Origin: Minisyncoccota bacterium
Lineage (GTDB): Bacteria; Patescibacteriota; Minisyncoccia; Minisyncoccales; JAGOPM01
Length of the DNA: 64,000 nucleotides
NCBI GenBank assembly: GCA_041651395.1
Contig: JBAZJI010000001.1
Location: 182,533 to 246,532 of the forward strand
Direction: 5' to 3'
The position numbers and the translations under genes were made by a program. Below are positions 4,156-51,340 of this stretch, in pieces (within the stretch, counting starts at the first letter, position 1; the number at the start of each line of letters is the position of its first letter). The notes under the pieces are model-generated. The model was not told the DNA's origin. It saw only the letters and a list, made by a program, of their open reading frames with translations, and ran no database searches.

Positions 4156-7100
4156 ATGTCCCAATATAAAGTTTTTTGTAAAGCCATTTTCACGGTTTTC
4201 TGCGTTGTGATGGTTTTGGCATTTGCCGGTATCGCTAATGCCTTTACCCAGCAATCAACATCGCAAGTGAAATTCAGCAATATTAGCGTTTCTGGCGGTG
4301 GCGGGCAAATATTTATTTACGATAATAATAAATATGATCCGCAGACTGTTTCTGCCGATATTCGCAATACGCCGCTTAAGCCCTGCCTTGATACGAGGCA
4401 GCTTGGCAGTGGCGGGCTGAAGATTTCCTGGAATTTATCCGCCGCTAAACCGGTAGGCTTTGATCATTGGTATGTCCGCTATGCCTGCGCCAGCACGCCG
4501 GCTATTGCAGCTGATACCAATACTATCGGGCGGGCATATTCTGATACTATTACTTGGAGTAGCCCAGCTTTATCTGCGGGACAATATTGCAAGATTTGGG
4601 CCTATGCCATGAAGGGCAGTAATTCTAATGAAGGTCTAAATATTGGCTTGGGAGGGGCTAACACCAGCCCGATTCAAGCTTGTTCTTTGAAGCCCTCAAT
4701 TTCTATTTTAGAGGGCAAGACCCTGAGCGTGTCCTCAATTTCTATCACTGTCCGCTATAACGACACAGGGGACAATTCTGATAGAGGACAAATTTATGCT
4801 TACGTCTATGACTCTCTTTGCACAAAATTAATCGGTTATGCCGGACCTTCGACCGTAAGTAAGAATGGGACAATTACTTTGGTTAAGGGTTCTCTGGATG
4901 CTAACACGACTTATTGCGTGAAGCCTTACGCAATTTCTGATGACAATGTCAGGGGATTTGGGGCTACCCAAATGAAAATTACCACTGGTGCCAGCTCTCC
5001 TAAGCCTGCGGAAGATTTTTCTAATAATTTCAAAATTTGTCGAACAAGCGATACGGACAAGTGCAGCGATTTTACTACTCAAAGTCCTCTGACCTTACTG
5101 GCCTGTAATTCTTACGTTGCCGGTTTAGGTATCGCAAAATTTAACACTTGCTATCTTGTCAGTGACACAAATAGTGTTTTAGCGTGTAATGCGGCTTGCT
5201 CTAAAGCTTCCGGAGAGGCTTCTGAAGAGCTTTCTTATTGCGATACGGCCTTCAAATGTGTTGGCGGAAAAATGACCAAAACGGAATGCAAACTCAAAAA
5301 CGGTAATAAAGATTGTTGGACCGGGCTTTATTGCGGCGGGCAGTGGTATAATGCCGATTCTAAATGTATCCCCACGACCGCAGCCTTATTAATAAATCCT
5401 TATATTCCGGAAACAACTGATTTCAAATGTGTTTCCGAGACACTAAGTTCTAAAGTAGAAACCGCGCTTTTCGCCAAGTTGCTTTCGACTGGCGGGGCGG
5501 CCAGCGCCAATGTGTTTTTTGATGTGTATGATAAAAGCGCGAAATGGGTTGCCAGCCAGAGTTTTTCAGGAAAGGCCAGCGGTAGTGAGATGAGCTACAA
5601 TCCTTTACTCGAGCAAGGGACTGAATATCGCTTCAAGGCTTCGGCCTATACTTCTGGCAATTCCACCTCCGTTTCTGTTTTATTTACGACGCCTTATTGC
5701 ACAACGCCTGAGCCCTTGGAGGAACTTTCATATTGTGATGGTTTAGTTTGCCGAGGAGTAAAAACAACCAAGACCAAATGCCGCACCGAATTAAATAAGG
5801 GTTTGGACTGCCGCGCCGGGCTTTATTGCGGCGGGACAGCAAGCAATCCGGACCAGACTTGCAAAGCCGGTGCGCCGGCGGATTATAGTTTGCTGCTTTC
5901 TGTGCCCGAGGTGACCGTCAAAGATTGCAGTGCTGCCGGCTCTAAAGCGGATATTTCTGTGATTATGATGCCCAGCCTTGGCAGTAATAACAGCGGCAAT
6001 ATTCTAGTTGAACAGCTTGATGCCAATGGCTCGGTGGTGACCAGTAAGACGATTGCAAGCGTGCGCAGCCTGGAGAATTATTACTGGAATTTTTCTTTAA
6101 GCCCCAAACAGGCCGCAAAGGTTCGGGCGACCTTGTATGTAGTGGGCGGTAAAACTATTCAGACCAAGGATGTGGTCGTAAAGTGCGCCGAGGAACCAGT
6201 GAGTGTTTTTTCTTATTGTGAAGCCAAAACTTGCGTGGCCCGCAAAATGACCGAATCGGCTTGCCGGGCAGCTAATGGCGGCAAGGATTGCTACGTCAAT
6301 GCTTATTGCGGTGGGAAGATAAATAATCCCGATGCTAATTGTTTGGGTCTTGACCAAAATAAGATTGAAATTGTTTTACCTAGCCAGTTTGATCAGATTT
6401 GCGCTGGCGATACCATTATCCGCGCACCTGTGAAAATTAGAATTATTTCCACTTTTGGCGGAGTAATCGGCACAGCGACCGTGAAGGTATTAAATAGTTT
6501 TGGCACGGAGATACTTTCCCAAAAATATACTGATGCTAAAGCCGGGAGTGCCTATGGCAATGAAGTGATATTCCAGCCAAACCAAAAATATAAAGTGGAA
6601 GCCAGTTTAGGGACCAGTAATGCCGCGCCTTCTATTGTTTCTGCCGAATTCATTGCCAAGAGCTGCGCCACCCAGACCGATGAAGTCAAAACGAGATCAT
6701 TTTGCTCCGGTATTGTTTGCCGGACGGTGAAAGAAACTGCCGCAGAATGTAAAGCGGAAAATAACGGCAACGCCTGTTTTGAGGTTCCTTATTGCGGTGG
6801 AACTATTTCTGACTACGGCGACAGTAAGTGCACCTCCATAGACACTTCTAAGGAGCGCTCTTATTGCTCTGCCGGGAAGTGCACTACTATAAAAACCACG
6901 GCCGCTGATTGCAAAGCGCGCAATAATGGCAACGCATGTTTTGAGGTGCCATATTGCGGCGGGCTTTGGTATAACGGCGATTCCAAATGCCAACAATCCA
7001 GTTGCAGTAAAGAGAGTTTAAGAAGCTTATCTTCGGAACTTCGAAGCGTTTATGAAAATGCCGGCGGATATAAAAAATATTGCTACAAGGGGGTAACATT

Positions 7101-10100
7101 GAAAGTCGGTTTGTCATTATACGGCGCGATACAGTGCCCGAATTTGTACATGCCGTATGTGGAACAGGATGTGTATCTTTCGAATACATCTTTAGATTTA
7201 GCTTGGCGGCTCGCCGCGACCACTGAGCAGGAGGCTGTAAATAATATCCAAGGATATATCGATAATAATATTGCGAGGCTGACTAAAGATTGCGAATGCT
7301 ATAAAGGTATTATTGTCAGTCGATTGATGGAAACTGCGCCGGCTGGCGGAACAGTTGATTTCCCTTATTCGGCGAGATTAGTCGTGGATACAACTTCTGG
7401 CCGATATTTTAATGATATAACCGGGTGTGATGAATCATCAAAGACTGGCGGTGAATTTTGCGTTGGCGGAAACACTATCGAAGATGTAAAAAATAATGCA
7501 AGAAGATATATTGATAACCATCCAAATGAGTTTACTAAAACCCAATGTATCTCTACCGATACTATCAAGGAGCGTTCTTATTGTTCTGGCAACTCTTGCA
7601 TAACTATCCGCAGTACGGCTACCGCCTGCCGTGAGAAGAATAATTGGCAGGATTGTTTTGAGGTGCCATATTGCGGCGGGCTTTGGTATAACGGCGATCA
7701 AAAATGCGCTGCCCTCGATCCTGTGCAGGAGCGCTCTTATTGCCTTGGCGCAACTTGCAAAACCGTGAAGACTACGGCCGCTAATTGCAAAGCCATGAAT
7801 AATGGAACGGATTGTTTTGCTCTACCATATTGCGGCGGCACAATCTCTGATTATGGCGATAGCAAATGCGGCGCGTTAAAGCAGCTGACGATTACCAACC
7901 CAACAGCTTCTTATTGGAAACTTAACGATAACATCGATTTCACTTGGATTAATGGCAAGCCGGGAGAAACAGTTTACATTTCCCGTTGGCTTAATTATGG
8001 CAGCAATAGTTTAGCGCTTTGCGCCGGGCGCAATGATGCCAATGGCTCGGGCTCTTGCCGTTGGACGGTGAATGCGCAGCTTGGCAAACATACTATTTGG
8101 GCTAAAGCTGCCAGCAGCCAAAGGGACTTTGATACAAAAGTTGAAATTGAGGTAATCGAACACTTGCCTGAAAGCAGCCTTTCCTTGAAAAATAATTATT
8201 TCAGCTCCAATGTTTGGGATGGGCCTCTTCAGCGCAAACAGGTAGCCGGGTTCAAAGTGACCGCCCAAGAATCTACCCAGAATCTCACGAGATTTAATTT
8301 GGATTTTTCCGGAAAGATTTGGGAGAACTTTGCCATCCTTGATGTTTATGACGCCACAATGGGGACTTCAATATTTTCCAAGAGTATTATTGCCTATGAT
8401 TTTATCCAGAGTGGTTCATATTGGAGGATAAATATAGAACCGTTCAGATTGCAAGTTCCTTTGGAGGCCAATTATCCGCACGAATTGCAGGTTTTCCTGA
8501 CAAGCCGCGACGGTCAACTTTCTACCGTCAATTATCAGATATTTGTTAATAAGAATGCGGCTCGCGCCACGGGTGCTAATGGTTTGAGTTATTATGCGCC
8601 TGATAAAGATGCGGAAGTTTCAAATTTCTTCCGAATCGCTCCGCAGCCGCCTAAATATTTTGCCTGTTCCAATGCTCTTTGCCAGATTGTAAAAAATCCT
8701 TTAACCGGCAAAGAAGTGCAAAGTGAAGCGGAATGCCAAATTGCCACGAATTTTGCCAAGACTTGTTACTTAAATGACAGCACTTGCCAAAATATTTGCA
8801 AGTCAGTTTGTGTCAAAGATGGTTTTGCCTACAAGGATCGCGGAGATATTTGCTGCGCCACTGATGGTTACAAAGAAATCGATTCTTCCGTTTTGAAAAA
8901 TGACGGTAGCTGCACGGCTGGCAATCCTAACGTGAAAATTTGCTCTAAATGCGGCAATGGTTCTTGCGACTCAATGGAAAATAAATGTAACTGTTCGCAA
9001 GATTGTGGCGCCTTATGCAACAAGGTTAATCAGAATGCGGTGGATGCCACTCTTTGTTGCCCGGGTTTGACTTGGCTTTCTAACCAATATCGCCTTGGCC
9101 GCGATGGGGGTTGTGTAAACAGCGGCTTTACCAATGGTATTTGTGTTAATACCAAATGCGGAGACGCTAAATGCGAAGGATATGAAGATAAATGCAACTG
9201 CCCAGTTGATTGTAAAGAAGTTTTGGGTTGCAAAGCAGCCAACCAGAATGCCGATTCCCCCGGCTTGTGCTGCCAAAATCTTGATTGGCTTTCCAATAAA
9301 TATCGCCTCTCCAGTAATGCGAGCTGTGCGGACAGCGGCTTTATCAATGGTATTTGTGTAACCACTAAATGTGGCGATACCAAATGCGAAGGATATGAAG
9401 ATAAGTGCAACTGCCCGCAAGATTGCAGTGGTTCGGTTATTCCCGGAACTTGTGTTGCCGAGGGTAAAGTGATTTATCCAGATGGCAGCGCGTGCTGCTC
9501 GGGTTTAACAAAAATTACCGGCCAAAATGTCGGTTATGACGGCGTAACTTGTGTAGATGTATATAGCAGCGGCATGGGTTTCTGCTCTAAATGCGGAGAT
9601 GGCAAATGCGAGAATCCGGAAAATAAATGCAACTGCCCGATTGATTGCGCTTGCGGCAATGGGAGATGCGACGGCAATGAAAATTACCAAACTTGTCCGC
9701 AGGATTGCGAAAAGCCGACTGAGGAAAAATATTGTTATAAGGGAATGTATATTTATTTCTCCAATTATCCTAATCCCAAAGTTAACAACGCAAAATACTG
9801 GCTTTCCAATTGGGATTTTGGTGGCGACTTAAAAGGTTTTAGCGGTTCTGTTGAAACGGCCAAAGCCGCGGCAGAAATGTATGTGGCTTCGCTCTGCGAT
9901 GGCACTAATGCTAAGAGCTATAATTGCACTCAGTGCGAGCGCACCGACCTTATTCCCGAGGTCATGGAAAAAATCTGTTTCAATAACAAGACATATTACT
10001 ACCGATCCAATAAACCCAATGCGGAAAGCAAGACTTTATTCTGGGTGAAAATAATTTTAGGCGGAGAATTAAAAACAATAGGTCATGATAGCGAGAGCCA

Positions 10101-12570
10101 GATGATTGCGTTCCTTAAAGGTGTTATGCCTTCGGCGCAGCTCAAATTTGCCGAACCTTGCACCGGGACAGAGGAGAAAGCTGATTATAATTATTGCGAC
10201 AAATCCAGCCCTGCTAAATGCCAACAAGAAGATGCCACGACTTTAACCCAATGCGAAACAAAATATGGCAAGGGTAATTGCTTTAAGGCTGACCCGACTT
10301 GTGCCGGCAAATGTGCCAAGATGGGGGCTAGTTGCCGCAAATGTGTGCACGGCATGTGTGCTTATTATGACCCGGCGGGTAATCCCAATACGGTGAATAA
10401 TTCCAAATGGTACATTGCCAATTATAGGCTTAGTGGCACGGCTGTTCCGATTGGTGAAGATACGGAAATGGCGATTGTCGCCCGCATCGATTTCCTCTGG
10501 AATGGGGTAACCAAGAATGATTTTAATTTCGCGCAATGCACTGAAACTCAAGACTTGGAAGTTGATTGCTATAAGAGTATTTCTATCCGATATGCCGCGC
10601 AAGGCAATCCTAAAGTGTTGGGCCAAAAATATTACATCAAAGTTACGGAAAAAGATGGCAATGTTTTCTGGTTTGGCTCTAGTGGCAGCATTAAAAACGA
10701 TGACCAAAATGCCAACATCGCTTATTTGAGGAGCCTTATTGATATCTATACAAATATAACGCCCGATTATGTTAAGGAATGTTTTACTACTCCCAAACCG
10801 GCCGGAGTGAAAAATCCGACTCCCAAAGCGGCCGGCAGCCTCGCCCCCAAGGGCGCCCCGGCCGATGACCCTTATTATAGAGGTGAGTGGCAGTATTGTT
10901 ACCCTGACGGGAAGAACTTGAATTCCGATTGTCGGAAAATGTTTTATTGCGATTTGCGCAATGCCTGTTCTGGCCAAAATTGTAATGTAACTGAAACTTC
11001 CCGCTATTATTACAAGCTCACTTCTTGCCAAGACGGTTTGGCTTATCAGTCTGCCTTGAAGGGCAAGACTACTGGATATTGTTATAACACCAGGCAAGAG
11101 GCTGAGAGCGCTTGTAAGAGATATTTTTATTGCGCTTCGGGTAATGGCACGGCCACCAATGTTTTACTGACTAAAGCCGGCAAAGCCTATACCGATGTTT
11201 ATGAATGTACGAGAAACCTCAAGGTTGATGAGTCCGGCTCCGGCCCGATTGGGCAGTGCTACGATAGCGAGCAGGAAGCCAAAGACCACTGCAGCCGTTG
11301 GTATTATTGCCCGGCCGATCCAGCCAAAAAAGGCTGCTCGCCTTCTAATACTTATGCCGACGAGGCAGCTTGTATGGCGGGTGTGATAAAAAATGCCCCC
11401 AAGGCTTTGCCTAAGTGCTACAAGGATCAAGAAACGTGCAATCAGGCTTGCCAGTCAAATGTTTTGTGGACTGCTTATAATGATCCAAAAGAGGGGCTAA
11501 TTTGCGACCAAGTTAAAGAGAGAGATCGCAATGGCGCTATTAGGCAATTTTATGGGAAGGTTGATGATGCGATTTCTGAATGCCGCCAATATTTAGATAC
11601 CAATAATCGCAAAGATACCAATTTGGATTGCTATAAAACTTTTTCGGAATGTGACGAGGCTATCAGTGGTAAGAGCCGCATGCGCGTCTGCCTAAAATCC
11701 GGGGATGCCAAATGTGCCGCTTTGCCGAGTAAATACGAAAATACTCAGGCCGGATGCGATAAATTTTTAAGCGATAATAAAGGGTTGGTTGGTTTGAATA
11801 AATGTTATGATTCGCTTTATTCAGCCACTTGCGACAGTGATTGTAAAAATGCCGGCTCCTCGCAATTCAAGGGCGCTTTCTATATCAAACCCGATGCGGC
11901 GGCCGGGAAAAATGGCGGCTGTTTGGCCTTGAGCGGATTTGAAAACGGCAAGCTAGCCTGCGAGAACGAAATTTCCCGCGCTTGGGATACGCAGGTTAAT
12001 AAGACTTGTTATCTTGATACCGCCGATTGCAATTCCAATTTCCCCAAAGGCGGTAGGGAGGCTGTACCTAATGTTTCCAAGGTTATGAATAGCGGGCTGT
12101 ATAAGTTTTATTATTACAACAAGACCATTGAATCCTGCGTGCTAAGCCAACGATATTTTTCTACCCTAAGGGAATGCAAGGATTTTTATTCTAAGATGAG
12201 CGTGGAAGCTTTGCCTGATTGCTTTAGTTGGCTTGCTGAGTGTCAGGCCAAGGGTAACCGCTATGCGTTTTTTGTCCGCGAGGGTTTACAAGGTATTTAT
12301 AAGATGACTACGGAAAGATATGCCTCTCCCTCGGCTTGCAGACAAAATGTGGCCAAATATTATTCGCCGCTTAAAGCTTATTCGGTTTGTTATACGAGTA
12401 TCGCCGCAGCCTCAACTGATAAGGAAAAGGAAAAACAGAAACTAAACTTTTATTATTTGAATAATTCGACCTGCCGGTATGCGGGAAAGTTTCTGACGCA
12501 AAAAGCTTGCGAATATTCAACTAAGCAAAGATGTTTCATCAGTTCCCGTTGTGACAATAAAGTGATTTGA
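4156..12570 (+). CDS. giant secreted Cys-rich modular surface protein (2804 aa)
   Basis: Single uninterrupted ORF opening with signal peptide MSQYKVFCKAIFTVFCVVMVLAFAGIANA. It holds 7 copies of a six-Cys ~48-aa module (…SYCxxxxCxxxKTTxxxCKAxNNGxxCFEVPYCGG…DSKC). It also has repeated CGDGKCExxENKCNCPxDC modules and FN3-like TxYCVKxYAxS signatures. Confidence 0.8.
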   Translation: MSQYKVFCKAIFTVFCVVMVLAFAGIANAFTQQSTSQVKFSNISVSGGGGQIFIYDNNKYDPQTVSADIRNTPLKPCLDTRQLGSGGLKISWNLSAAKPVGFDHWYVRYACASTPAIAADTNTIGRAYSDTITWSSPALSAGQYCKIWAYAMKGSNSNEGLNIGLGGANTSPIQACSLKPSISILEGKTLSVSSISITVRYNDTGDNSDRGQIYAYVYDSLCTKLIGYAGPSTVSKNGTITLVKGSLDANTTYCVKPYAISDDNVRGFGATQMKITTGASSPKPAEDFSNNFKICRTSDTDKCSDFTTQSPLTLLACNSYVAGLGIAKFNTCYLVSDTNSVLACNAACSKASGEASEELSYCDTAFKCVGGKMTKTECKLKNGNKDCWTGLYCGGQWYNADSKCIPTTAALLINPYIPETTDFKCVSETLSSKVETALFAKLLSTGGAASANVFFDVYDKSAKWVASQSFSGKASGSEMSYNPLLEQGTEYRFKASAYTSGNSTSVSVLFTTPYCTTPEPLEELSYCDGLVCRGVKTTKTKCRTELNKGLDCRAGLYCGGTASNPDQTCKAGAPADYSLLLSVPEVTVKDCSAAGSKADISVIMMPSLGSNNSGNILVEQLDANGSVVTSKTIASVRSLENYYWNFSLSPKQAAKVRATLYVVGGKTIQTKDVVVKCAEEPVSVFSYCEAKTCVARKMTESACRAANGGKDCYVNAYCGGKINNPDANCLGLDQNKIEIVLPSQFDQICAGDTIIRAPVKIRIISTFGGVIGTATVKVLNSFGTEILSQKYTDAKAGSAYGNEVIFQPNQKYKVEASLGTSNAAPSIVSAEFIAKSCATQTDEVKTRSFCSGIVCRTVKETAAECKAENNGNACFEVPYCGGTISDYGDSKCTSIDTSKERSYCSAGKCTTIKTTAADCKARNNGNACFEVPYCGGLWYNGDSKCQQSSCSKESLRSLSSELRSVYENAGGYKKYCYKGVTLKVGLSLYGAIQCPNLYMPYVEQDVYLSNTSLDLAWRLAATTEQEAVNNIQGYIDNNIARLTKDCECYKGIIVSRLMETAPAGGTVDFPYSARLVVDTTSGRYFNDITGCDESSKTGGEFCVGGNTIEDVKNNARRYIDNHPNEFTKTQCISTDTIKERSYCSGNSCITIRSTATACREKNNWQDCFEVPYCGGLWYNGDQKCAALDPVQERSYCLGATCKTVKTTAANCKAMNNGTDCFALPYCGGTISDYGDSKCGALKQLTITNPTASYWKLNDNIDFTWINGKPGETVYISRWLNYGSNSLALCAGRNDANGSGSCRWTVNAQLGKHTIWAKAASSQRDFDTKVEIEVIEHLPESSLSLKNNYFSSNVWDGPLQRKQVAGFKVTAQESTQNLTRFNLDFSGKIWENFAILDVYDATMGTSIFSKSIIAYDFIQSGSYWRINIEPFRLQVPLEANYPHELQVFLTSRDGQLSTVNYQIFVNKNAARATGANGLSYYAPDKDAEVSNFFRIAPQPPKYFACSNALCQIVKNPLTGKEVQSEAECQIATNFAKTCYLNDSTCQNICKSVCVKDGFAYKDRGDICCATDGYKEIDSSVLKNDGSCTAGNPNVKICSKCGNGSCDSMENKCNCSQDCGALCNKVNQNAVDATLCCPGLTWLSNQYRLGRDGGCVNSGFTNGICVNTKCGDAKCEGYEDKCNCPVDCKEVLGCKAANQNADSPGLCCQNLDWLSNKYRLSSNASCADSGFINGICVTTKCGDTKCEGYEDKCNCPQDCSGSVIPGTCVAEGKVIYPDGSACCSGLTKITGQNVGYDGVTCVDVYSSGMGFCSKCGDGKCENPENKCNCPIDCACGNGRCDGNENYQTCPQDCEKPTEEKYCYKGMYIYFSNYPNPKVNNAKYWLSNWDFGGDLKGFSGSVETAKAAAEMYVASLCDGTNAKSYNCTQCERTDLIPEVMEKICFNNKTYYYRSNKPNAESKTLFWVKIILGGELKTIGHDSESQMIAFLKGVMPSAQLKFAEPCTGTEEKADYNYCDKSSPAKCQQEDATTLTQCETKYGKGNCFKADPTCAGKCAKMGASCRKCVHGMCAYYDPAGNPNTVNNSKWYIANYRLSGTAVPIGEDTEMAIVARIDFLWNGVTKNDFNFAQCTETQDLEVDCYKSISIRYAAQGNPKVLGQKYYIKVTEKDGNVFWFGSSGSIKNDDQNANIAYLRSLIDIYTNITPDYVKECFTTPKPAGVKNPTPKAAGSLAPKGAPADDPYYRGEWQYCYPDGKNLNSDCRKMFYCDLRNACSGQNCNVTETSRYYYKLTSCQDGLAYQSALKGKTTGYCYNTRQEAESACKRYFYCASGNGTATNVLLTKAGKAYTDVYECTRNLKVDESGSGPIGQCYDSEQEAKDHCSRWYYCPADPAKKGCSPSNTYADEAACMAGVIKNAPKALPKCYKDQETCNQACQSNVLWTAYNDPKEGLICDQVKERDRNGAIRQFYGKVDDAISECRQYLDTNNRKDTNLDCYKTFSECDEAISGKSRMRVCLKSGDAKCAALPSKYENTQAGCDKFLSDNKGLVGLNKCYDSLYSATCDSDCKNAGSSQFKGAFYIKPDAAAGKNGGCLALSGFENGKLACENEISRAWDTQVNKTCYLDTADCNSNFPKGGREAVPNVSKVMNSGLYKFYYYNKTIESCVLSQRYFSTLRECKDFYSKMSVEALPDCFSWLAECQAKGNRYAFFVREGLQGIYKMTTERYASPSACRQNVAKYYSPLKAYSVCYTSIAAASTDKEKEKQKLNFYYLNNSTCRYAGKFLTQKACEYSTKQRCFISSRCDNKVI
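5224..7870 (+). repeat. array of seven six-cysteine ~48-aa modules inside the 2804-aa gene, including a near-identical 45-bp DNA repeat (6937-6981 vs 7655-7699)
   Basis: Protein-level repeats EELSYCDTAFKC..., KERSYCSAGKC..., QERSYCLGATC... read directly; the DNA string tgttttgaggtgccatattgcggcgggctttggtataacggcgat occurs twice. Confidence 0.7.
8941..9712 (+). repeat. tandem CGxGxC-ExxENKCNCPxDC modules with LCCxxLxWLSNxYRL spacers inside the 2804-aa gene
   Basis: Repeated CGNGSCDSMENKCNCSQDC / CGDAKCEGYEDKCNCPVDC / CGDTKCEGYEDKCNCPQDC / CGDGKCENPENKCNCPIDC / CGNGRCDGNENYQTCPQDC read in the translation. Confidence 0.65.
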
Positions 12571-12632: not shown

Positions 12633-15600
12633 ATGCAAAAAAAATTCATTATCAGTGCGGTAGCGGTTGTTTTGGGGCTTTTGGCTATAGCGATAACGCC
12701 ATTATTTGCCCAGACAATCGAGAATTTAACGGCCGAACAGAAGGCGATATTTTTGCAAGTTTTAGCTGACGAAATTGCTATTCGAAAAGATATGGCCGGC
12801 CCGCAAGTTGCCGGGGCTTATGCTACGCCCGATGCGGCTTACGTGCCGCAGGCCAAAACCTTACTTTTTGTTAAGCCGAGGGTTTTGGGTGTCGTGGCTT
12901 TGTCGGGGAGTTTAACTTCCCGCTGTGGCGATGGTATTTGCGGCTCAGGGGAATATTATTCCAATTGTCCGAGTGATTGCGGCAAGGGGGCCACGTTGCC
13001 GGGTTATGGCGGCAATTTGACTGGTGGCTATAATCCTACCGGAAATCTTAACAGTGGCTCCTTGATTCAAAATCCCTGTAATTATAATTTTCAATGCGAG
13101 CCATTGCGCGGCGAAACTACTCTTAATTGCGCTTCGGATTGCAAAACCAGCGCTATCACTTATCCGGGAACGGTTGGCACGGGTGCAACAAATCTTGGTG
13201 GTGGTTTAATTTCCGGCGGGGCGAATCCCTGTAATTATAATAATTTGTGCGAGCCATTGCGCGGCGAAACTACTCTTAATTGTTTTTCTGATTGTAAATC
13301 TAGTTCTATTGGGACAGTGAATAATAATCCGCCATATCCGGGCTGGCTGAGGTGTGAGGTTTGTGGAAAGTGGTACAACCCCACAACCGGAAGATGTCCG
13401 GAAATATGCAATGAGACTGCCTCGGGAAGCGGCGAGGATTATACTAAGCAATCAGCTCCGATCACTTTGCCTCCGGAAGTAAAAGAGGGCAAAAATATTT
13501 TACGTGGCAGCGTTTCGGAAATTGTTGCGGGAGGCGAGCCGGGATTTATTGTTTATGATCCTAGCCAACCGCAAACCCGTGGTTCCCAAATCGGGGGAGC
13601 TGGTGGGGTACAAATCGGGGGTGTTCAAAGCGGGCAAACCAACGTTGGCTTTGGCTCTCAGGCCGGTGGCTTACCCGGATCAATAAGAATTAATGTTTCT
13701 GGATTCGTTTCCGCCAGTTATGACAAAACGACAAAAATATTTACGGCAACTTACGAAGATCCTACGCTTTTGCCCGGGAAGACGCGCGCTTATCGTGCCG
13801 CCATCAGGGTAAAGTCGGCTAGCTTATCGGGCGGTTATGCTTATATTGAGGCGCAAAACGAGCAATATATTTACGGGCAGGCTAAGGTTTTCAAAGCGGG
13901 TGAATGCCCTTGTCCCGAGACCGATGAATGGGTTTGTTACGATGTTTTTAGCTACAATACGACAACCAAGGTGGTGGCTACCTCTACGGCTGAGTTCAAA
14001 AATCCTTGTATTGCGGCTTGCGAAATTGGTAAAGTCCGCAAGGATAACCCGGCTACCAATTATAATTTTAAGAAGAACGGCAAATGCCAAACGAGCGATA
14101 CTATCCGCGGCAAAGATGTGACGGCGCCATTTAAGATTTCTACCGTTGGTCCGGCTGAAGTTACGGAGATTAAGCCGGGAGAAATGGGTTATGACCAAAA
14201 ACAAAAAAGGTTTAGGGTCAAGATTGCAATGAAGGTAGAGGATTTCGGTTCAATGCAGGCTATTCGCTTGCTGTCCAGTCCTTATCAATATAATAAGACC
14301 AAGAATCCCACCGGCGCTTTAGCTTTAGGCGAGGCTAAAAATATTTCCGCGAGCGCGCCGATTAATTCACAAGTGCAGATTTTTGATGCGAATAAAAATA
14401 TTCCCGGAACTTGGTTTATTAAGCCCGGCGATAATCAGAACCAAATAAGTTTTGAGGCGATTATTTCCGAGAATGGAGAACATTGCTTTATCGCGCGAGC
14501 TTATGCTATGCGAGATTATAAACCCGGTGATCAGTACCTTTCTAATACTGCTTATGCCGAACAATATTTAGTTAATGCCGATAATGAAGTTTGCGTGAAA
14601 GTAGAGGGCCTTGCCCAACAGGTGACTAAGGATTGTAAAACGATTAACGGCAAGGAAATTTGCATTAATGTAACTAATCCGTGCGTTGGCAATAATTGCA
14701 TTAATGTCGGCGAAGATTCGGTAATTACAGCTACTACGAGCCGACCGTTTGAAGACTTATCAATCGTGCAAGTGGCATCGCCAGAAGTTACAACCCTTGA
14801 AGCGGTTAACATTACGACTAATTCTATCACCTTAAGAGGAAGGTTAACCAAGCTGGGTGGCTCTCCGCCATGGGGCGATGATTCGCGATATGCCAAGCGC
14901 GAGACCTATGTGAGTTTTGGAGGGTCAAGCATTAAGGAAACTCCTAGCCAAAAAATGGCCACTGTCGGCGATTTTGAATATACTGTTAAGGAATTAAAAC
15001 CCGGAACGGAGTATTGCTATAATGCCATTGCTTGGCTGCAAAAAGCCGGCGCAACAACTCAGCCGACTGAATATGGCTTTATAGCTAGCGGAATAACCCT
15101 CGCCAAAGAGAAGGCTGCGTATGGCAAAAGCATTTGCGTAAAGACACAATTTGGTGATGCTTTGGAAAAAGCGGAAAGTTCAGAAAATCCGGAATTGGAA
15201 CTAGAAAAAATGGGTTATAAGACGAATTTAGACGAATTCGGAGTAAATTGGGCCAGTGCTTATAAGAATGTTGTCCGACCATTTACAATTACAGCTTCTT
15301 TCTTCTCCACTTCGATAAAACTCGATAGTGATACGATGTATGGCATGATGCACAAGACTGATTTAGAAAAAGAATCAATCGCTATTCCGGTTGTCGGCTT
15401 TGCCTTCCAGAGGGGCTCAACTGCGGCCAGCGGCCCATACGCGGGCGGGGCTATTTCTTTGTCTGGTGCTCCTGTGCAGCAAAGCGGCAAAACGTATTTT
15501 GTGATTGCCGGCAAGGGTATTGCTTTGGGTAAAGATGACTATACCTTCAATTTCAAAATGCCTGACATTTTGGCCGGCATGAGTTTTAATTATTATCCAT

Positions 15601-16976
15601 TCGCTATTTATGATGGCAAGATTTATTCCGCAAGTATGCCGGCTAAGATTTCTGCCGCGGCAGATAAAACTTATATCAACCCAGATATCAATGCCTTGGA
15701 AAATGGAGAATTAAAGCGCGGGTGGCAAAAGGGTTATTATAAAGCTGAGTTGCGCGGCGAAGTTCTTAAAATCGGCAGCGGCGCACAAGCAGCCAGTGGG
15801 GTTACGGTTGGATTCTCTATTATTTCTTCCGATGATAATTTAATCAGCAAGACGCATTCGGGATATGTGCAAGGAAGTAAGAGATTCGATTATCCAGGAG
15901 ATTTATCGTACGAATATGGCCAGATAAGGAGCGGATATACTTATTGCTATAAATTGGCTGCCGGCCTCTCGAATAGCTCCATGCAATATTCGGCTAAGGA
16001 GATCTGTTTTACTGCTCCAGTAGAAGATGATTGGAAATTAGATGTTTATACTGCGCCAACTTCCACGGCTTGGAAAAATCAAAGCGAACAATCTTACAGT
16101 GAGATTTGCGCCAAATGTGCCAATATCACTACCGCACCCCGCCCGCCCAATTCGTCTTTTACGTCTAGTTTTGGAATACGAACTGCGGTTTGCGCCAGCG
16201 ACAATAAGACTTACGAAAAAGAGTGTTTCCAATATTATTGCACGAAGGTCGGTTTAAGATTGAAGAGCTATGGTGCTTGCCAAACAACGCCTGTAGTCAC
16301 TATTAAAACCGGAACAGTGGCCAGCGGTATCTTGGCGTATAATAAGGCGATAGTGGCCAGAGTTAATAAGATTCCCGGTTCGGCTACACTTAGCACCAGC
16401 GACACGGCCAATGCAAACATTAAAGTTTTCATCCAAGCTGTGGGTGGGAGTGCCTATATTAAGACAAGCGGCGCATTCGTAGTTGGACTTTACGAAACAG
16501 CTAAGGGGCGCTTAGGGACTATCCCTCCGGATAAAATTAAATATAGTTGCGGCAGTGAAAGGGTAGGGTATTCTTATAAGATTTCTGCTATTGGTGGCAA
16601 TGAATGTGATTTGATTGTAAATTTTGAGCCCATTTATATGTCTTCAGCTGTCGGAAAATATTATGTGAGGCTGGAGAGTATTTTGTGGACGCAAACGGAA
16701 AATGGTGCAACAAAAGTTTCCTCTATTGTGGCCACTAGCGGAGATTATTTCTCGACTACTCCTGTAGATTTGATTTATCGCAAAGGCATTGCCGCGGGAA
16801 CGGGTAAACAATGTGTTTGCACTGCGCAATATCAGCCGGTTTGCGCTGTACCACCCGGATTTACTCAGCCGCAAATTTATCCAAATCTTTGTTATGCCCA
16901 GTGCGACAATGCTACGGCCAAAACAGAGTATCAAGTGATAGGCGGGAAGTGTGTTTACGTGAACTATAATCGCTAA
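12633..16976 (+). CDS. giant secreted protein (about 1447 aa) with CGDGxC…NCPxDC modules, FN3-like signatures and Kazal-type inhibitor-like domains
   Basis: Start taken at ATG 12633 (MQKKFIISAVAVVLGLLAIAITPLFAQ signal peptide); the tracker start 12567 overlaps the upstream gene and terminator. Kazal-like: AVCASDNKTYEKECFQYYCTKVGLRLKSYGAC and CVCTAQYQPVCAV…LCYAQCDNATAKTEYQVIGGKC. Cys modules: RCGDGICGSGEYYSNCPSDC, NPCNYNFQCEPLRGETTLNCASDC (twice). Confidence 0.75.
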   Translation: MQKKFIISAVAVVLGLLAIAITPLFAQTIENLTAEQKAIFLQVLADEIAIRKDMAGPQVAGAYATPDAAYVPQAKTLLFVKPRVLGVVALSGSLTSRCGDGICGSGEYYSNCPSDCGKGATLPGYGGNLTGGYNPTGNLNSGSLIQNPCNYNFQCEPLRGETTLNCASDCKTSAITYPGTVGTGATNLGGGLISGGANPCNYNNLCEPLRGETTLNCFSDCKSSSIGTVNNNPPYPGWLRCEVCGKWYNPTTGRCPEICNETASGSGEDYTKQSAPITLPPEVKEGKNILRGSVSEIVAGGEPGFIVYDPSQPQTRGSQIGGAGGVQIGGVQSGQTNVGFGSQAGGLPGSIRINVSGFVSASYDKTTKIFTATYEDPTLLPGKTRAYRAAIRVKSASLSGGYAYIEAQNEQYIYGQAKVFKAGECPCPETDEWVCYDVFSYNTTTKVVATSTAEFKNPCIAACEIGKVRKDNPATNYNFKKNGKCQTSDTIRGKDVTAPFKISTVGPAEVTEIKPGEMGYDQKQKRFRVKIAMKVEDFGSMQAIRLLSSPYQYNKTKNPTGALALGEAKNISASAPINSQVQIFDANKNIPGTWFIKPGDNQNQISFEAIISENGEHCFIARAYAMRDYKPGDQYLSNTAYAEQYLVNADNEVCVKVEGLAQQVTKDCKTINGKEICINVTNPCVGNNCINVGEDSVITATTSRPFEDLSIVQVASPEVTTLEAVNITTNSITLRGRLTKLGGSPPWGDDSRYAKRETYVSFGGSSIKETPSQKMATVGDFEYTVKELKPGTEYCYNAIAWLQKAGATTQPTEYGFIASGITLAKEKAAYGKSICVKTQFGDALEKAESSENPELELEKMGYKTNLDEFGVNWASAYKNVVRPFTITASFFSTSIKLDSDTMYGMMHKTDLEKESIAIPVVGFAFQRGSTAASGPYAGGAISLSGAPVQQSGKTYFVIAGKGIALGKDDYTFNFKMPDILAGMSFNYYPFAIYDGKIYSASMPAKISAAADKTYINPDINALENGELKRGWQKGYYKAELRGEVLKIGSGAQAASGVTVGFSIISSDDNLISKTHSGYVQGSKRFDYPGDLSYEYGQIRSGYTYCYKLAAGLSNSSMQYSAKEICFTAPVEDDWKLDVYTAPTSTAWKNQSEQSYSEICAKCANITTAPRPPNSSFTSSFGIRTAVCASDNKTYEKECFQYYCTKVGLRLKSYGACQTTPVVTIKTGTVASGILAYNKAIVARVNKIPGSATLSTSDTANANIKVFIQAVGGSAYIKTSGAFVVGLYETAKGRLGTIPPDKIKYSCGSERVGYSYKISAIGGNECDLIVNFEPIYMSSAVGKYYVRLESILWTQTENGATKVSSIVATSGDYFSTTPVDLIYRKGIAAGTGKQCVCTAQYQPVCAVPPGFTQPQIYPNLCYAQCDNATAKTEYQVIGGKCVYVNYNR

Positions 16977-17390: not shown

Positions 17391-19556
17391 ATGGTGAAAA
17401 AGCTCGAAAAGATTCAAAAAAGGGATGGCCGCATTGTTGATTTTGATCAAGTGAAGATTACCGACGCGGTCGAGAAGGCGATTTTGGCAACCAATGCCGG
17501 TGACGGGGCAATGGCCGCAAAAGTTTCTGATAAAGTGACCGATATTTTATCTAGAAGATTTCGTAAGGGCGAGGCGCCTAATATCGAACAGGTACAAGAT
17601 GTTATTGAGGAGGTATTGATGCTGGAAGATTTGGTGGAAACGGCCAAGGCTTACATTATTTATCGTGAGCAACGCCGCCAATTACGCGAAATCGAAAAAG
17701 CTACTGATGAATCGGTTGGGCACGTCGAGCAATATTTGAATAAACTGGATTGGGAGGTGAAGGAGAATGCCAATATGGCTTATTCTTTGCAGGGTCTTAA
17801 CCATTATGTGGCGACCTATGTGATGAAAAAATATTGGCTGGAAAAAATTTATCCCAAAGAAGTCCGCGAGGCCAATGAGAACGGGGCTTTTCATGTGCAT
17901 AATTTAGATACACTTGGACCGTATTGCATGGGTTGGGATCTTTACGATTTTTTACTCAAGGGCTTTGGCGGGGTTAACGGCAAAGTGGAATCTAAACCGC
18001 CAAAACATTTCCGTTCTGCCCTTGGGCAAATTGTAAACTTTTTGTACACCATGCAGGGGGAGTGCGCCGGAGCCGTGGCCTTTTCTAATTTTGATACTTT
18101 GCTAGCCCCTTACATTCGCCATGACAATTTGAATTATCAGCAAGTTAAGCAGGCGATGCAGGAGTTCATGTTTAATTTGGCTGTGCCGACTCGGGTTGGA
18201 TTTCAGACGCCCTTTACTAATATTACTTTAGATATTAAACCCTCAGCGGCTTTTGCCAGTGAGCCGGCTTTAGTGGGTGGCGTGGCGCAAGAAAAAACCT
18301 ATTCCGAATATCAGGAAGAAATGCGGATTTTAGATAAAGCTATTTATGAGTGTATGTTGGAGGGTGATAAAAATGGACGGCCCTTTACCTTTCCGATACC
18401 AACTATAAATATTACGAAGGATTTTGATTGGGATAACCCCGATCTTGATATCGTTTGGGAGGCGACGGCAAAATATGGCATAAATTATTTTGCCAATTAC
18501 ATAAATTCGGAAATGGATCCCAAGGATGTGCGCTCGATGTGTTGCCGGCTTCGCTTGGATTTGACCGAGCTGCGTAATCGCGGCGGCGGCGGACTTTTTG
18601 GGGCTGGAGCTCTGACCGGCTCAGTGGGTGTGGTAACCATTAATTTGCCCAGAATCGGCCATACTTCTAAAACCAAAAAGGAGTTTTTTGCCCAGTTGCA
18701 TAAAATAATGGATTTGGCTAAAGACAGTTTGGAGATAAAGCGCAAGGTTTTGGAAAATTTCATTGAGAAGGGCCTTTATCCTTATTCGCGCTATTATTTA
18801 GCCGGAGTCAGAAAGGCCCGCGGAAAATATTTTGCCAATCATTTTTCTACCATCGGCCTTACGGGTATGAATGAAACCCTTTTGAATTTTTTGGGTGAGG
18901 ATATCGGCTCGCAAAAAGGGCGTAAATTCACTTTAGAGGTGCTCGATTATATGAGAGATGTATTGGTCAAATACCAAGAGGAAACCGGAAATATTTATAA
19001 TTTAGAGGCGACGCCGGCAGAAAGTACTTCCTATCGCTTGGCGCTTAAGGATTTGAAGATGCACCCCGATATAATCCACGCCGGAACCAAGGAAGTGCCT
19101 TACTATACTAATTCCACCTTATTGCCGGTCAATTATACCGATGATGTTTTTGAGACTCTGAAACTGCAAGACGAGATACAATGTAAATATACCGGCGGAA
19201 CGGTCTTGCATATTTTTGTCGGGGAGAGGATACACGAAATAGGGCCAGTGAAGAATTTAGTCAAAAAAATATTCAGCAAATTCCGACTTCCTTATATTAC
19301 CATTACTCCGACCTTTTCTATTTGCCCCGTGCATGGATACATTTCCGGCGAGCACAAGACTTGCCCCAAGTGCGTGGTGCAGCAGCCTTGCGAGGTGTAT
19401 TCGCGCATTGTTGGGTACTTGAGGCCGGTCAACCAGTGGAATGAAGGCAAACAGCAGGAATATTGTGACCGGAAAACTTATAAAGTGGAAATTCCCCAAG
19501 CTGCTCCCGCCCAAGAGGGCTCACACGTCCAGGCAATCTTAGTTAAAGAACCCTAA
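17391..19556 (+). CDS. nrdD: anaerobic ribonucleoside-triphosphate reductase (class III RNR)
   Basis: N-terminal ATP-cone (MVKKLEKIQKRDGRIVDFDQVKITDAVEKAI). C-terminal Zn-ribbon CPVHGYISGEHKTCPKC and glycyl-radical-type RIVGYL motif. 721 aa. Confidence 0.85.
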   Translation: MVKKLEKIQKRDGRIVDFDQVKITDAVEKAILATNAGDGAMAAKVSDKVTDILSRRFRKGEAPNIEQVQDVIEEVLMLEDLVETAKAYIIYREQRRQLREIEKATDESVGHVEQYLNKLDWEVKENANMAYSLQGLNHYVATYVMKKYWLEKIYPKEVREANENGAFHVHNLDTLGPYCMGWDLYDFLLKGFGGVNGKVESKPPKHFRSALGQIVNFLYTMQGECAGAVAFSNFDTLLAPYIRHDNLNYQQVKQAMQEFMFNLAVPTRVGFQTPFTNITLDIKPSAAFASEPALVGGVAQEKTYSEYQEEMRILDKAIYECMLEGDKNGRPFTFPIPTINITKDFDWDNPDLDIVWEATAKYGINYFANYINSEMDPKDVRSMCCRLRLDLTELRNRGGGGLFGAGALTGSVGVVTINLPRIGHTSKTKKEFFAQLHKIMDLAKDSLEIKRKVLENFIEKGLYPYSRYYLAGVRKARGKYFANHFSTIGLTGMNETLLNFLGEDIGSQKGRKFTLEVLDYMRDVLVKYQEETGNIYNLEATPAESTSYRLALKDLKMHPDIIHAGTKEVPYYTNSTLLPVNYTDDVFETLKLQDEIQCKYTGGTVLHIFVGERIHEIGPVKNLVKKIFSKFRLPYITITPTFSICPVHGYISGEHKTCPKCVVQQPCEVYSRIVGYLRPVNQWNEGKQQEYCDRKTYKVEIPQAAPAQEGSHVQAILVKEP

Positions 19557-19678
19557 ATTTTCCCCCGCCTAAAAAGCGGGGAAAGGTTTAGAATGAAAAA
19601 TATCCAATGGATACCGGCGAAAGCCGGTATGGCAAAATGAAATTATTGGTTCAACTAAATTAGTTATCGGTTGATTTT

Positions 19679-20386
19679 ATGCTTATTGGCGGATTGCAAA
19701 AAACAACATTAATTGATTATCCGGGTAAAATAGCCTGCGTTGTTTTTTTGGCCGGTTGTAATTTTCGGTGCCCATTTTGTTACTCAGCGGAAATTGTTTT
19801 GCCGGAAAAAATTTTAAGGCAGCCGACGATCAGCGAGGAAAAATTTTTTGCTTTTCTGAAGGACAAAGTCGGGATGCTCGACGGGGTAGTAGTCTGCGGC
19901 GGAGAACCGACCTTAAATGAGGATTTACCCAATTTTATAAAGAAAATAAAAAATTTAGGATTTTTGGTGAAGCTGGATACTAACGGCAGCAATCCCGCCA
20001 TGCTTAAAAAGCTCCTTAAGGGAAATTTTCTCGATTATGTAGCTATGGATATCAAAGCCAAGCCTGAAAATTATAAAAAGGTTGGCTGTGGTGCCTCGGA
20101 TTTTCAAAAAGTAGAGGAAAGCGTAAAAGAGTTGAAGAAAAATAATATTGCCTTTGAATTTAGAACCACGATGGTTCCGGGCTTGGTTTCGGCTTCGGAT
20201 ATGCCCCAAATTGCCAAATGGATCGGCGGTTTAGACGTTCCTTATTATTTACAGAATTTTCGTCCGGATAAAACTTTAGACCCTTCCTTGATGTCTCTTT
20301 CCCCTTATACTGACCAAGAAATCAAAGAAGCCGAACAAGCCGCCAAGCCGTATTTTAAGAGTGTGAAAGTGCGAAACTATATTTGA
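19679..20386 (+). CDS. nrdG: anaerobic RNR activating protein (radical SAM)
   Basis: CNFRCPFCYS (CxxxCxxC radical-SAM cluster motif) near the N-terminus, plus the GGEPTL motif. Immediately downstream of nrdD. Confidence 0.75.
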   Translation: MLIGGLQKTTLIDYPGKIACVVFLAGCNFRCPFCYSAEIVLPEKILRQPTISEEKFFAFLKDKVGMLDGVVVCGGEPTLNEDLPNFIKKIKNLGFLVKLDTNGSNPAMLKKLLKGNFLDYVAMDIKAKPENYKKVGCGASDFQKVEESVKELKKNNIAFEFRTTMVPGLVSASDMPQIAKWIGGLDVPYYLQNFRPDKTLDPSLMSLSPYTDQEIKEAEQAAKPYFKSVKVRNYI

Positions 20387-47112: not shown

Positions 47113-50100
47113 TTACTGTAATTCGGGCGGGTTAAAGTCCTTAAATGTTTTTCTTGAGATATCGTAAATTTCTCCAACCTCAGCTAGTTTGCTTAATGGG
47201 AACAGGATATAGGTTTGGTCCCCGGATAAGCCAGAAACATTTTGGCCGCAGCTATCACTTAACCTCCCATTGTAATTCTTATCAACGGCCGTGGTCAGGC
47301 GGAATAATTTGCGGGGGCTCTGGGGGGATGCAATCGAATCATTGCCAACTGCTTTAACCGAGTTTTTATCATATTCGTCCCAGCGGGAAATATTTACGTA
47401 GTGCGATGGATTGCCGTAGCAGCGCATAATTATCGGAATACCCCGGGAAGTAAACCTCTGGGTTTGCTCCCAATTAACAAATTGCCGGTCAGGGAATTTA
47501 TCGCCCATGCTGCTAGAGCCGGTAATCGGCATAAAGACCATGCCCAGATTTGTTTGGAAATCCTTAAAAATATTATGTTTGCCGCTTAAAGCCCAATCAA
47601 CGGAAAAAAGACCTTTACAGGTTAAGTAGCGCAAAACTTTATAAGTGGTTGGCTCATACTTTTCATAGCGCTCCTCGACGCTTAATTTGGAATCATCGAT
47701 TTTTTCGTATGGCTTCCAATCGTCATTACAGCTGTTGGTTTTGATGTCGTAAAAACAACCGCGAATGGCCAGATTATATTCCCGCTGCCAATTAGCGCGG
47801 AAGGAGTTGTCGTTGCGATACCAGTAGGCAAAAGACATGGAAAGCGCGCTATCGCCACAGCCGGCCGAGCCGACCACAGACATTCTATCTGTGGCATAAA
47901 GGCGGCGGCAGGAAGTGTATTGTCCGCTGGTTTGGGAGAATTGCGGCACGTCAGTCATAGAAATAATCGATTTGGGCTCTCCGCAATTCAGGCAGGAAAA
48001 AGTATTATTCCCAGTGCAGTCGGTGGCCACGCAAGCTTGCCATTTATAAAGGTAGCGGGAATATTTTTTCTTAACTTCGAGGTATTCATAAACCGGCAGG
48101 CCTTGATTCTTCATTTTTTCGGAAACATAATCTTCAAACGGATTATTAAGGGCATAATAGAACATTCCTTTTTCGGCCGGGACGGCAACCATGTGCTCGC
48201 GTTTGCGTAATCCCTGTGAGCAGGCAAACCGGGTATCAAAACTGATTGAGGGATCGTCTCCGGCCGGCTCTTCGGAGCAGATATTGAAGTAATATTTGGC
48301 TTGGGGATTGCCCTTACCCAGAGTTTTGGCCGCTCCAGAGAAGAGAATTTTTTGCCAGCTCATGGAGTAGGCTTTCAAAGTCAAAGCTTGCGGGGATTCG
48401 ATATTAAATTCTTTAGTTACGGGGAGGGAATATTTTTTGTCGCCGTATTTGCCCATATTCTCGGCAATCAGGGTGGCAAAAAATTTCTTTTTTCCGTCCA
48501 AGTGGTCATTGCCGATTAAAACTCCAAACAGGCTGCCCGATTTTTCAGCGCGTGAAAAGGTTACCCGGTGGGGATTTTTCTTAAAGAAAGGATCGTCTTT
48601 GGGGTTGAGCTTGGTATTAACCGGCTCGCCCTCCAGCCACCAATAGGCCCAGATAAGAGCGCCACTGCCGCCCTCATTAGTGGTGTTACCATCGGAAAGA
48701 AGTTGCCCGGTAACATTATAGGAAAAGGTTTTGCTATTGGCCGGATAGGTAATGTTTTTTATCCGGAAATCATCGGCTTCCAGCGTCGGCTTGGCAAATG
48801 ATGTTTTGAAGGGGATTATCTCTCCATAGGTTGTCCCCGCATTATTTGCGCCCACAGCCTGGACGCAATATTCCGTATCGGGCTTAAGCCCGTTTTGGGA
48901 ACCAAAATAGTAAAGCCCGTTGCGGGAGCCGGTCTTGGCTTCAAAAAATTGTTCTTTATCTTTAGCCTGGGGCTCGATGCTGCAATCGGCAAGGTAGAAT
49001 ATATCGCTTTTATCAGTGATATTTTCTACTGGCCGTTTTCTGGCTTCCCACACCCTAAACCAGGTCTTGAAGCTGCTATCATAAATATTTTGTTCGTCGA
49101 GTTTGGCTTCAAAACTGGCCGAGGTATCTTTGATAAAATTTAAGGCATTAAGCCCGCAAGGTTCGGGTTGGGATTTTCCAATAAAGGGGGTAAATTGGGT
49201 GTAATAATAGGGGAGGTAATTTTGCGGCGTGGAAGCGTCGGGCGGTACAAAAAATTTGCAGGTTTGGATTCTGGGCAGGCGCAAAGTTTTGAAGATACCG
49301 ACATTGGTTTTATCGGTATATTTATCCGTGGGCGAATTAGCCACCACCGAGCGGAAACAATATTGCCCGCCGCCCTCTTCAAGGGTGTCTACTACCACTC
49401 CGTAAGTTACTTTACCCGAATCTTTTTTCTGTTTGTAATAAAATATTTCGACAGCCTTATCCTGGAGTGACCTTATCTCTTCAGGATCAGGTATTTGTTT
49501 TTTATCGGTGCAGGGCCAATACTCAAACCAAGCTTTAACGGCATTGCGATTTCCACCTGAACTTATAATTTCCCCTTCCAGCCGGGCCTTGGTTGTCCCG
49601 ATACCTTCAGCCGACACGGTTTTGGATTGAAGGGGCAGAACCGCCTCCGAGCATTGATAACCGTCATAGGCTTTTTGTTCGGTGCGCCCTAAGTTTTGCG
49701 CTGCTGCCTTCCAGCAATATTTTTGATTGTATTCCACATCCAGATCAGTGGTAAAATATTGCCCGCCCGGCTCTGTTCTCAGGTCAATGGATTTTAGAAT
49801 TTTTGGGTTGGGTATGGGGCCTTGCCATTGGTTGCGCAGAGCATCTTGGTATTTGGCCCAGTAAAAATAAGTATAGCCTTTGCTGATACTGACGGTTTGG
49901 TCAAAGCGGAAAATTCGCCCGCCTAACCGGATTTTGTTTACTAATTCCGGGCTATCCGATCTTTTTAGATAGAAAAAGTCGGTGGACTCGTCATACACTT
50001 CGTTTTTCACCCAGTTTTGGCAATTTTCATCGCCTAAGGTGGTAAAGCACTGAGCATTTTTTTTATCAACCGAATAACCCCAATCCGTGTGAGCTAAGGC

Positions 50101-51195: not shown

Positions 51196-51340
51196 ACTCG
51201 TCTTTATTCTATCCGAAAATTGCAAAAAGGGATGTGCAAAACTCCTTATTTTATAGAGTTAAAAAGGCTCTACTTTACAAATCAAAAATTTGTGATATAA
51301 TTAGGTAATTAACAAAAACATACGGAAAGGAGGGGATAAC

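Follow-up and report, generated by a model that had tools for sequence, protein, structure and literature searches.

A 19-residue, four-cysteine module recurs in giant secreted proteins of a Candidatus Paceibacterota genome and appears distinct from the Myxococcus cysteine-rich repeat

The DNA analysed here (the window) is a 64-kb stretch of a 957-kb contig from a metagenome-assembled genome of Candidatus Paceibacterota, a lineage of the candidate phyla radiation (CPR, or Patescibacteria). It encodes four giant proteins, G1 to G4, all four with signal-peptide-like N-termini. Three of them, G1, G2 and G4, share a 19-residue module built around four invariant cysteines. From its sequence, this module appears to be a third type of small acidic cysteine repeat, beside TIGR02232 and NF033662, and to be new to Pfam and NCBIfam. 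The explanation that we favour, with moderate confidence, is that it is an extracellular connector, locked by disulfides and possibly binding Ca2+, which sits within the linkers of secreted and surface proteins.

The strict 19-residue pattern CG[DN]..C...E....C..DC was searched in the four giants and in all six frames of the window. It was retrieved exactly nine times, always with the spacing CG[DN]xxCxxxExxxxCxxDC: G1 has five copies, G2 one and G4 three (Table 1), and the pattern is absent from G3 and from the remaining frames of the window. In 2000 residue shuffles of the four giants, the strict pattern never occurred and a pattern of the cysteines alone turned up 0.0035 times per shuffle on average. 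Cys1, Gly2, Cys6, Glu10, Cys15, Asp18 and Cys19 are invariant in all window copies, and the consensus is C-G-[DN]-G-x-C-[ED]-x-G-E-[TSN]-x-x-[SNT]-C-P-x-D-C. We delineate the family by C-x4-C-x8-C-x3-C together with Gly2, Asp/Asn3, Glu10 and Asp18, a combination present in 9/9 window copies. A preliminary description of this DNA had proposed a C-G-D/N-G-x-C...E...C-x-x-D-C core common to three of the four giants. This core is confirmed, since all four peptides quoted there are present and the cysteine spacing, once the modules are aligned, is identical across the nine copies. The number of copies had been under-counted, the actual figures being five in G1, three in G4 and one in G2, plus two length variants.

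The interval examined there, 8941-9712, corresponds to residues 1596-1853 of G1. Copies of the module are 60-81% identical at the DNA level, with many synonymous differences, and conservation therefore acts at the protein level rather than reflecting recent DNA duplication. All five modules are retained in an orthologue of G1 with 90% identity, where only variable positions have changed. The modules of G4 and G2 are four-cysteine, stand-alone beads set in low-complexity Gly/Ser/Tyr/Thr-rich linkers between beta-rich regions.

Table 1. Position in the window of the giant proteins, the 66-residue domains and the module copies
Feature	Position	Strand	Remarks
G1	4156-12570	+	2804 residues, 6.5% Cys, secreted; NCBI MFA5165842.1, annotated 'hypothetical protein'
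G1 66-residue ten-Cys domain, copy 1	8809-9006	+	residues 1552-1617
G1 66-residue domain, copy 2	9016-9213	+	residues 1621-1686
G1 66-residue domain, copy 3	9229-9426	+	residues 1692-1757
G1 66-residue domain, copy 4	9451-9648	+	residues 1766-1831; AF2 pLDDT about 90
G1 module 1	8950-9006	+	CGNGSCDSMENKCNCSQDC; C-terminal 19 residues of 66-residue domain copy 1
G1 module 2	9157-9213	+	CGDAKCEGYEDKCNCPVDC; in 66-residue domain copy 2
G1 module 3	9370-9426	+	CGDTKCEGYEDKCNCPQDC; in 66-residue domain copy 3
G1 module 4	9592-9648	+	CGDGKCENPENKCNCPIDC; in 66-residue domain copy 4
G1 module 5	9652-9708	+	CGNGRCDGNENYQTCPQDC; four-Cys, stand-alone, one residue past module 4
G2	12633-16976	+	1447 residues, secreted; MFA5165843.1, annotated 'hypothetical protein'
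G2 canonical module	12924-12980	+	CGDGICGSGEYYSNCPSDC; within Gly/Thr/Asn-rich linker region
G2 22-residue length variant	13077-13142	+	CNYNFQCEPLRGETTLNCASDC; E-x4-C-x2-DC kept, loops 1 and 2 longer
G2 22-residue length variant, copy 2	13230-13295	+	CNYNNLCEPLRGETTLNCFSDC
G3	47113-51225	-	1370 residues
G4	56760-61310	+	1516 residues, secreted, Ser/Tyr/Gly-rich, 1.85% Cys
G4 module 1	59109-59165	+	CGDGICNNNETYYSCSTDC; GGGSGYGY linker before, Ser-rich linker (SSNSQG...) after
G4 module 2	60147-60203	+	CGDGICNNGESYYTCYRDC
G4 module 3	60225-60281	+	CGDGICNNNETYYSCYSDC; in tandem with module 2, 7-residue linker between

Library comparisons covered Pfam-A, NCBIfam and PDB sequences. Pfam-A and NCBIfam gave nothing relevant on G1-G4 (E<=1) or on isolated module segments (E<=10), and no family of either library covers the module in seven foreign proteins with 8-17 copies. 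The same holds for a Pfam scan of 40 multi-copy carriers. PDB sequences contained no meaningful match to the module profile or to a 13-copy protein. The literature on the motif strings and on cysteine-rich repeats of DPANN archaea and CPR bacteria yielded no description of the 19-residue module.

The module is widespread. An exhaustive search with a 30-column profile, built from 22 modules, against 1.84 billion cluster representatives (50% identity) retrieved at least 8083 representatives at E<=1e-3, 2413 at E<=1e-10 and 316 at E<=1e-30. Carrier proteins hold up to 27 copies, nearly all of those sampled have signal peptides or lipoboxes, and thousands of unrelated protein architectures contain the module. 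The domains found beside it in the 40 multi-copy carriers were Somatomedin B (six proteins), trypsin (three), RCC1, Kelch, SpvB and DUF4215 (one). Co-occurrence with classical disulfide-bonded extracellular domains (Somatomedin B, trypsin, DUF4215 and Kazal) supports the explanation that we favour.

A degenerate DNA pattern of the module was additionally scanned against one genome per GTDB species, with taxa assigned by record titles. At about 42 bits against an estimated 1.2e12 positions, fewer than one chance match is expected, and many loci contained in-frame tandem matches. Among the matches listed, 42 belonged to Myxococcota (including cultured Sorangium), 6 to 'Deltaproteobacteria', 29 to DPANN archaea (Woese-, Nano-, Micr-, Aenigmat-, Alti-, Iain-, Nanohal- and Undinarchaeota), 5 to Methanosarcinales, 5 to Planctomycetota, 4 to Anaerolineae, 3 to Patescibacteria and 3 to Acidobacteriota, with other groups less represented; because the at least 120 stretches listed are not a total, these proportions are indicative only. 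The module is thus promiscuous and shared across Bacteria and Archaea, and among the matches listed it looks concentrated in CPR and DPANN episymbionts and in predatory Myxococcota.

Conservation was assessed in 1585 unique modules from other organisms, chosen by cysteine spacing alone. Gly2 was present in 97% of them, Asp/Asn3 in 99%, Glu10 in 99% and Asp18 in about 100%, and all four residues held together in 1519/1585 modules. Asp/Asn3, Glu10 and Asp18 are therefore conserved to the same degree as the cysteines, while the surface-exposed positions are highly variable. Disulfide connectivity was sought from natural double losses of cysteines, but among the modules compared 811 were intact, 8 had lost a single cysteine and none had lost two.

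In four of the five G1 copies, the module carries a fifth cysteine (Cys13) and constitutes the C-terminal third of a 66-residue, ten-cysteine unit with the pattern C..EG...CC.GL..I...G.C.....C.KCGDG.C...EN.CNCP.DC; G1 contains four of these domains and one stand-alone module. Of the units that possess Cys13, 119/122 have an even number of cysteines between the upstream CC and the module; of those that lack it, 27/32 have an odd number. The total count is even in 146/154 units, which fits the prediction of fully disulfide-paired domains. This co-variation indicates that Cys13 may staple the module to the preceding subdomain.

At least 206 relatives of the 66-residue unit were detectable by index-based homologue searches, which yield almost only short proteins and so under-sample multi-domain carriers. 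Most are secreted proteins of 90-160 residues from CPR bacteria (Wolfe-, Moran-, Gribaldo- and Parcubacteria) and DPANN archaea. The unit is also appended C-terminally to secreted phosphodiesterase/sulfatase-type enzymes and occurs with DUF333 and Kazal domains. One foreign protein (P0032) joins it to real Kazal domains. A longer variant of the module, with an inserted 'TCMAIGCP' (CG[DN]GICxxxTCMAIGCPxxETxxxCPxDC), was found in small secreted proteins beside the 66-residue domain (P0004, residues 218-248; P0006, residues 79-109).

The structure of the 66-residue unit was predicted with AlphaFold2 (AF2) from residues 1764-1854 of G1 and an alignment of 21 units. The model, with a predicted local distance difference test score (pLDDT) of about 90, contains short beta-hairpins, and its PIDC segment forms a one-turn helix. 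In a Foldseek search of the PDB this model had no significant neighbour; the top-ranking ones, all weak, were IGFBP N-domains and knottin toxins (E 0.28-2, best TMq 0.32). With such folds the domain would share a small beta-hairpin core and several disulfides, but it differs from them in its ten cysteines, in the 19-residue module fused at its C-terminus and in having no Pfam match. For the tandem modules of G4 (28 tandem pairs), AF2 predicted only a helix turn at each xxDC.

The equal conservation of Asp/Asn3, Glu10, Asp18 and the cysteines suggests a disulfide-locked, possibly Ca2+-binding connector. LNR, LDL-A and cbEGF domains are small acidic disulfide modules that bind Ca2+, and by analogy the three acidic or amide side chains probably bind a cation such as Ca2+ here too. 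Two internal disulfides would hold the module together, and the models predict a largely irregular chain with a one-turn helix at the final xxDC. Such a module could be used as a compact, rigid and protease-resistant bead or rivet in linkers. In G4 and G2, single or tandem copies lie within the Gly/Ser/Tyr-rich linkers that separate beta-rich domains. In G1, the five-cysteine version would be stapled by a Cys13 disulfide to the preceding 47-residue beta-hairpin subdomain; the resulting domain, of 66 residues and five disulfides, may be a binding unit in its own right.

Several points weigh against a disulfide-locked connector of this kind. The model of the stand-alone module reached moderate confidence only (pLDDT 68.5), and a Foldseek search of the G4 tandem model against the PDB gave no match. 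The putative Ca2+ site is argued by the analogy with LNR, LDL-A and cbEGF, and the two predicted intramodule disulfides from cysteine-count parity and the near-absence of cysteine loss. Directly downstream of G2, at 17391-20386, lie genes for the anaerobic ribonucleotide reductase NrdD (E=4e-193) and its radical-SAM activase (NrdG). These look like pointers to an anaerobic lifestyle of the host, in which the oxidative folding outside the cell of a protein such as G1, with its 182 cysteines, would need an explanation. Oxidative folding in such a host is assumed here, and no disulfide-forming enzyme or thiol oxidoreductase was seen in the window.

Alternatively, the module or the 66-residue domain of G1 might be a functional binding or adhesive element, directed at a host-cell surface, a glycan or a protease, and not a passive connector. 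In CPR bacteria and DPANN archaea, the 66-residue domain is found as a small secreted protein in its own right, its C-terminal position on secreted enzymes is in the style of a binding module, and its weak structural neighbours are binders. Large cysteine-rich surface proteins of CPR bacteria have been proposed to mediate attachment (PMC4736985), and the adhesive trail proteins of diatoms contain DUF4215 repeats (bioRxiv 10.1101/2023.03.06.531300). However, the Foldseek matches are non-significant (E>=0.28) and no ligand is known, while the variability of the exposed module positions and arrays of up to 27 copies resemble what is seen in spacers. We regard a dedicated binding role as unlikely.

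It is clearly unlikely that the modules arose by divergence from the Myxococcus cysteine-rich acidic repeat (TIGR02232/DUF4215), to which the preliminary description had likened them. The resemblance is genuine in one half of the module. Both repeats are short, acidic, extracellular and four-cysteine (TIGR02232, PF13948 and IPR011936 describe the known one), and both start in the same register, with CG[DN]G-x4-(G)E as their first ten residues. The module is very common in Myxococcota, and some proteins carry both repeats in alternation. An hhalign comparison of the module with TIGR02232 aligned the first 12 columns only (xxCG[DN]GxxxxGE; P=0.0016), at a probability of 15.9%, with no alignment past residue 10. 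Beyond this point the two diverge: the unit is 19 residues long here and about 31-38 there, position 6 is a cysteine here and hydrophobic there, and the second half reads xxxxCPxDC here and xCDDGNxxxxDGCxxxC there. Of the TIGR02232 pattern CG[DN]Gx4GExCDDGNx4DGCx3C, only CG[DN]Gx4(G)E is common to both.

Membership of the Myxococcus repeat family is not supported by profile searches either, as neither TIGR02232 nor PF13948 gave a match. TIGR02232 (cut-off 20.8 bits, 38-position model) did not match G1-G4 at E<=1 or the module segments at E<=10, nor did it match the seven foreign multi-copy proteins or a five-copy module array, so that even arrays of 5-17 copies remained without a TIGR02232 or PF13948 match at E<=10. 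PF13948 (DUF4215; gathering threshold 27 bits) likewise matched none of the window proteins, modules or foreign arrays. A synthetic TIGR02232-type control in the same runs scored 149.2 bits (E=1.8e-44) with TIGR02232 and 90.6 bits (E=7.3e-26) with PF13948. Given that the control scores strongly while the five-copy array scores nothing, the negative result is meaningful. A 609-residue protein (P0257) provides an internal comparison, since in it the 19-residue module alternates strictly with TIGR02232 repeats eight times. TIGR02232 matched exactly eight stretches of this protein, all of them its own units, and skipped the interleaved modules. The module is thus best described, from profile and pattern comparisons, as a probable neighbour of the Myxococcus repeat and not a member.

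Another protein, P0233 (1286 residues), holds three acidic cysteine repeats side by side: NF033662 (acid_disulf_rpt), a TIGR02232-like repeat and approximately twelve 19-residue modules. NF033662 resembles the module in being extracellular and Asp-rich, with four cysteines (two disulfides), but its pattern is CxDGxDNDxDGxxDCxDxDCxxDPxC, of about 27 residues, with another spacing and without the CG[DN]GxC start or the invariant Glu. Its profile (cut-off 41 bits, CxDGxDND...DCxDxDC spacing) detected nothing in the window proteins or in module arrays, whereas in P0233 it matched five units of its own, a visibly different repeat. Together, P0257 and P0233 suggest a shared extracellular 'bead' toolbox.

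It is also improbable that the four cysteines bind metal, as a Zn knuckle or an Fe site, and form no disulfides, although this arrangement would suit an anaerobic host, and NrdD/NrdG are encoded by this organism. Four invariant cysteines within 19 residues are compatible with such a site, and the sole PDB match of the module profile was an AN1-type zinc finger (1wfl), at a non-significant E=0.93. The classical Zn knuckle has a CxxC spacing, from which C-x4-C...C-x3-C differs. Extra cysteines are gained and lost in pairs (146/154 units), and the carriers are secreted proteins or lipoproteins, many of them from aerobic Myxococcota such as the cultured Sorangium. Moreover, the module co-occurs with disulfide-bonded extracellular domains, and a metal site of this type leaves the invariant acidic residues unaccounted for. 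These observations favour disulfides over metal ligation.

Remote homology to the Ca2+-binding Lin-12/Notch repeat (LNR) appears highly improbable. The LNR is a small acidic domain that binds Ca2+ and has little secondary structure, and the module is likewise tiny, acidic, largely irregular and predicted to contain disulfides. A five-copy array from the foreign protein P0147 gave four stretches of weak similarity to PF00066 (19.7 bits, E=1.2e-3), near a common G-N-G-x-C-D core. CPR cysteine-rich proteins weakly similar to pappalysin-1, which contains LNRs, have also been reported (PMC4736985). However, 19.7 bits is below the Pfam gathering threshold of 21.2, the window modules had no PF00066 match at E<=10, and 0/40 multi-copy proteins matched at E<=1e-3. 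The LNR has six cysteines in about 35 residues, compared with four in 19 here, and no Foldseek neighbour was found in the PDB. Finally, a chance or low-complexity coincidence among cysteine-rich proteins, for which the 6.5% Cys of G1 might speak, is refuted by the shuffles (0 expected with the strict pattern and 0.0035 with the loose one, against 9 observed), by three perfect copies in G4 at only 1.85% Cys and by the thousands of homologous copies retrieved in the exhaustive profile search.

It had also been proposed that the common module links the giants into one family, and this part does not hold. BLASTP and phmmer --max showed no significant similarity outside the modules, the all-vs-all comparisons of the giants returning only the modules and faint, non-significant hints of beta-sandwiches. 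As the module is promiscuous, only 19 residues long and present in thousands of architectures, sharing it does not establish homology of G1, G2 and G4.

G1 and G2 are adjacent on the same strand, separated by a 62-nt gap. The mechanically predicted open reading frame of G2 begins at a TTG codon at 12567, overlapping the G1 stop codon; the deposited protein begins at the ATG at 12633, which yields a clean signal peptide. The genes around the giants are housekeeping ones (YceG, NrdD and its activase, adenylate kinase, alanyl-tRNA synthetase and a ribosomal-protein cluster), so the operon gives no clue to the function of the giants.

Other repeats were observed in these proteins. G1 contains a second, unrelated cysteine-rich repeat at 5239-7869 (residues 362-1238), with seven copies of 42-47 residues and six cysteines (C..xxC...K.T...C......xxC.....YCGG......C), several of them with 'ERSY' just before; Pfam and NCBIfam have no matching model. 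A module of approximately 75 residues, 'C[YF][KN]G...', is present in about five copies in G1 (7081-7500 and 9733-10800; residues 976, 1048, 1860, 1941 and 2138), which are mutually related (Smith-Waterman z up to 9 versus shuffles). The C-terminus of G4 (61137-61307, 'C[YH][KR]G...', alpha/beta) was considered as a second building block common to G1, but z<=2 leaves this unsupported. G4 also has a (Gly-Ser)7 linker at 61030-61075 (residues ~1426-1459), followed by a final two-cysteine C-terminal domain of ~57 residues; because of this linker, a Pfam 'Serglycin' match in G4 (E=7e-4) is spurious. The C-terminal third of G2 (16180-16250 and 16840-16970) has Kazal-like cysteine patterns, such as CASDNKTYEKECFQYYC and 'CTAQYQPVCAV...YPNLCYAQC', and Pfam Kazal_1 matched residues 1207-1228 weakly (E=0.95). 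G3, on the minus strand and devoid of the module, has weak FN3-like Pfam matches (Pur_ac_phosph_N, E=2.2e-5), and its C-terminal ~300 residues, which include a 'SAGCGDSA' segment, lack a family assignment.

For the window itself, the consequence is a negative one, in that possession of the module gives no ground for grouping G1, G2 and G4 into one protein family. More broadly, CPR bacteria, DPANN archaea and Myxococcota all depend on cell contact, and much of what is still unannotated in their surface proteomes consists of small, acidic, cysteine-rich repeats. Given that the module occurs in at least 8083 clusters and is invisible to Pfam and NCBIfam, one new hidden Markov model could partly annotate thousands of hypothetical proteins. 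With the module set apart from TIGR02232 and NF033662, this extracellular toolbox comprises three or more distinct kinds of bead. A bolder possibility, to which we give a low probability, is that the module and the 66-residue domain form an undescribed fold family which, in organisms dependent on cell contact, gives attachment proteins adhesion or rigidity in a Ca2+-dependent manner. The 66-residue domain combines a confident AF2 fold, no significant structural neighbour and an occurrence as small secreted proteins in episymbionts, and this makes it a tractable target for work on structure, ligands and adhesion.

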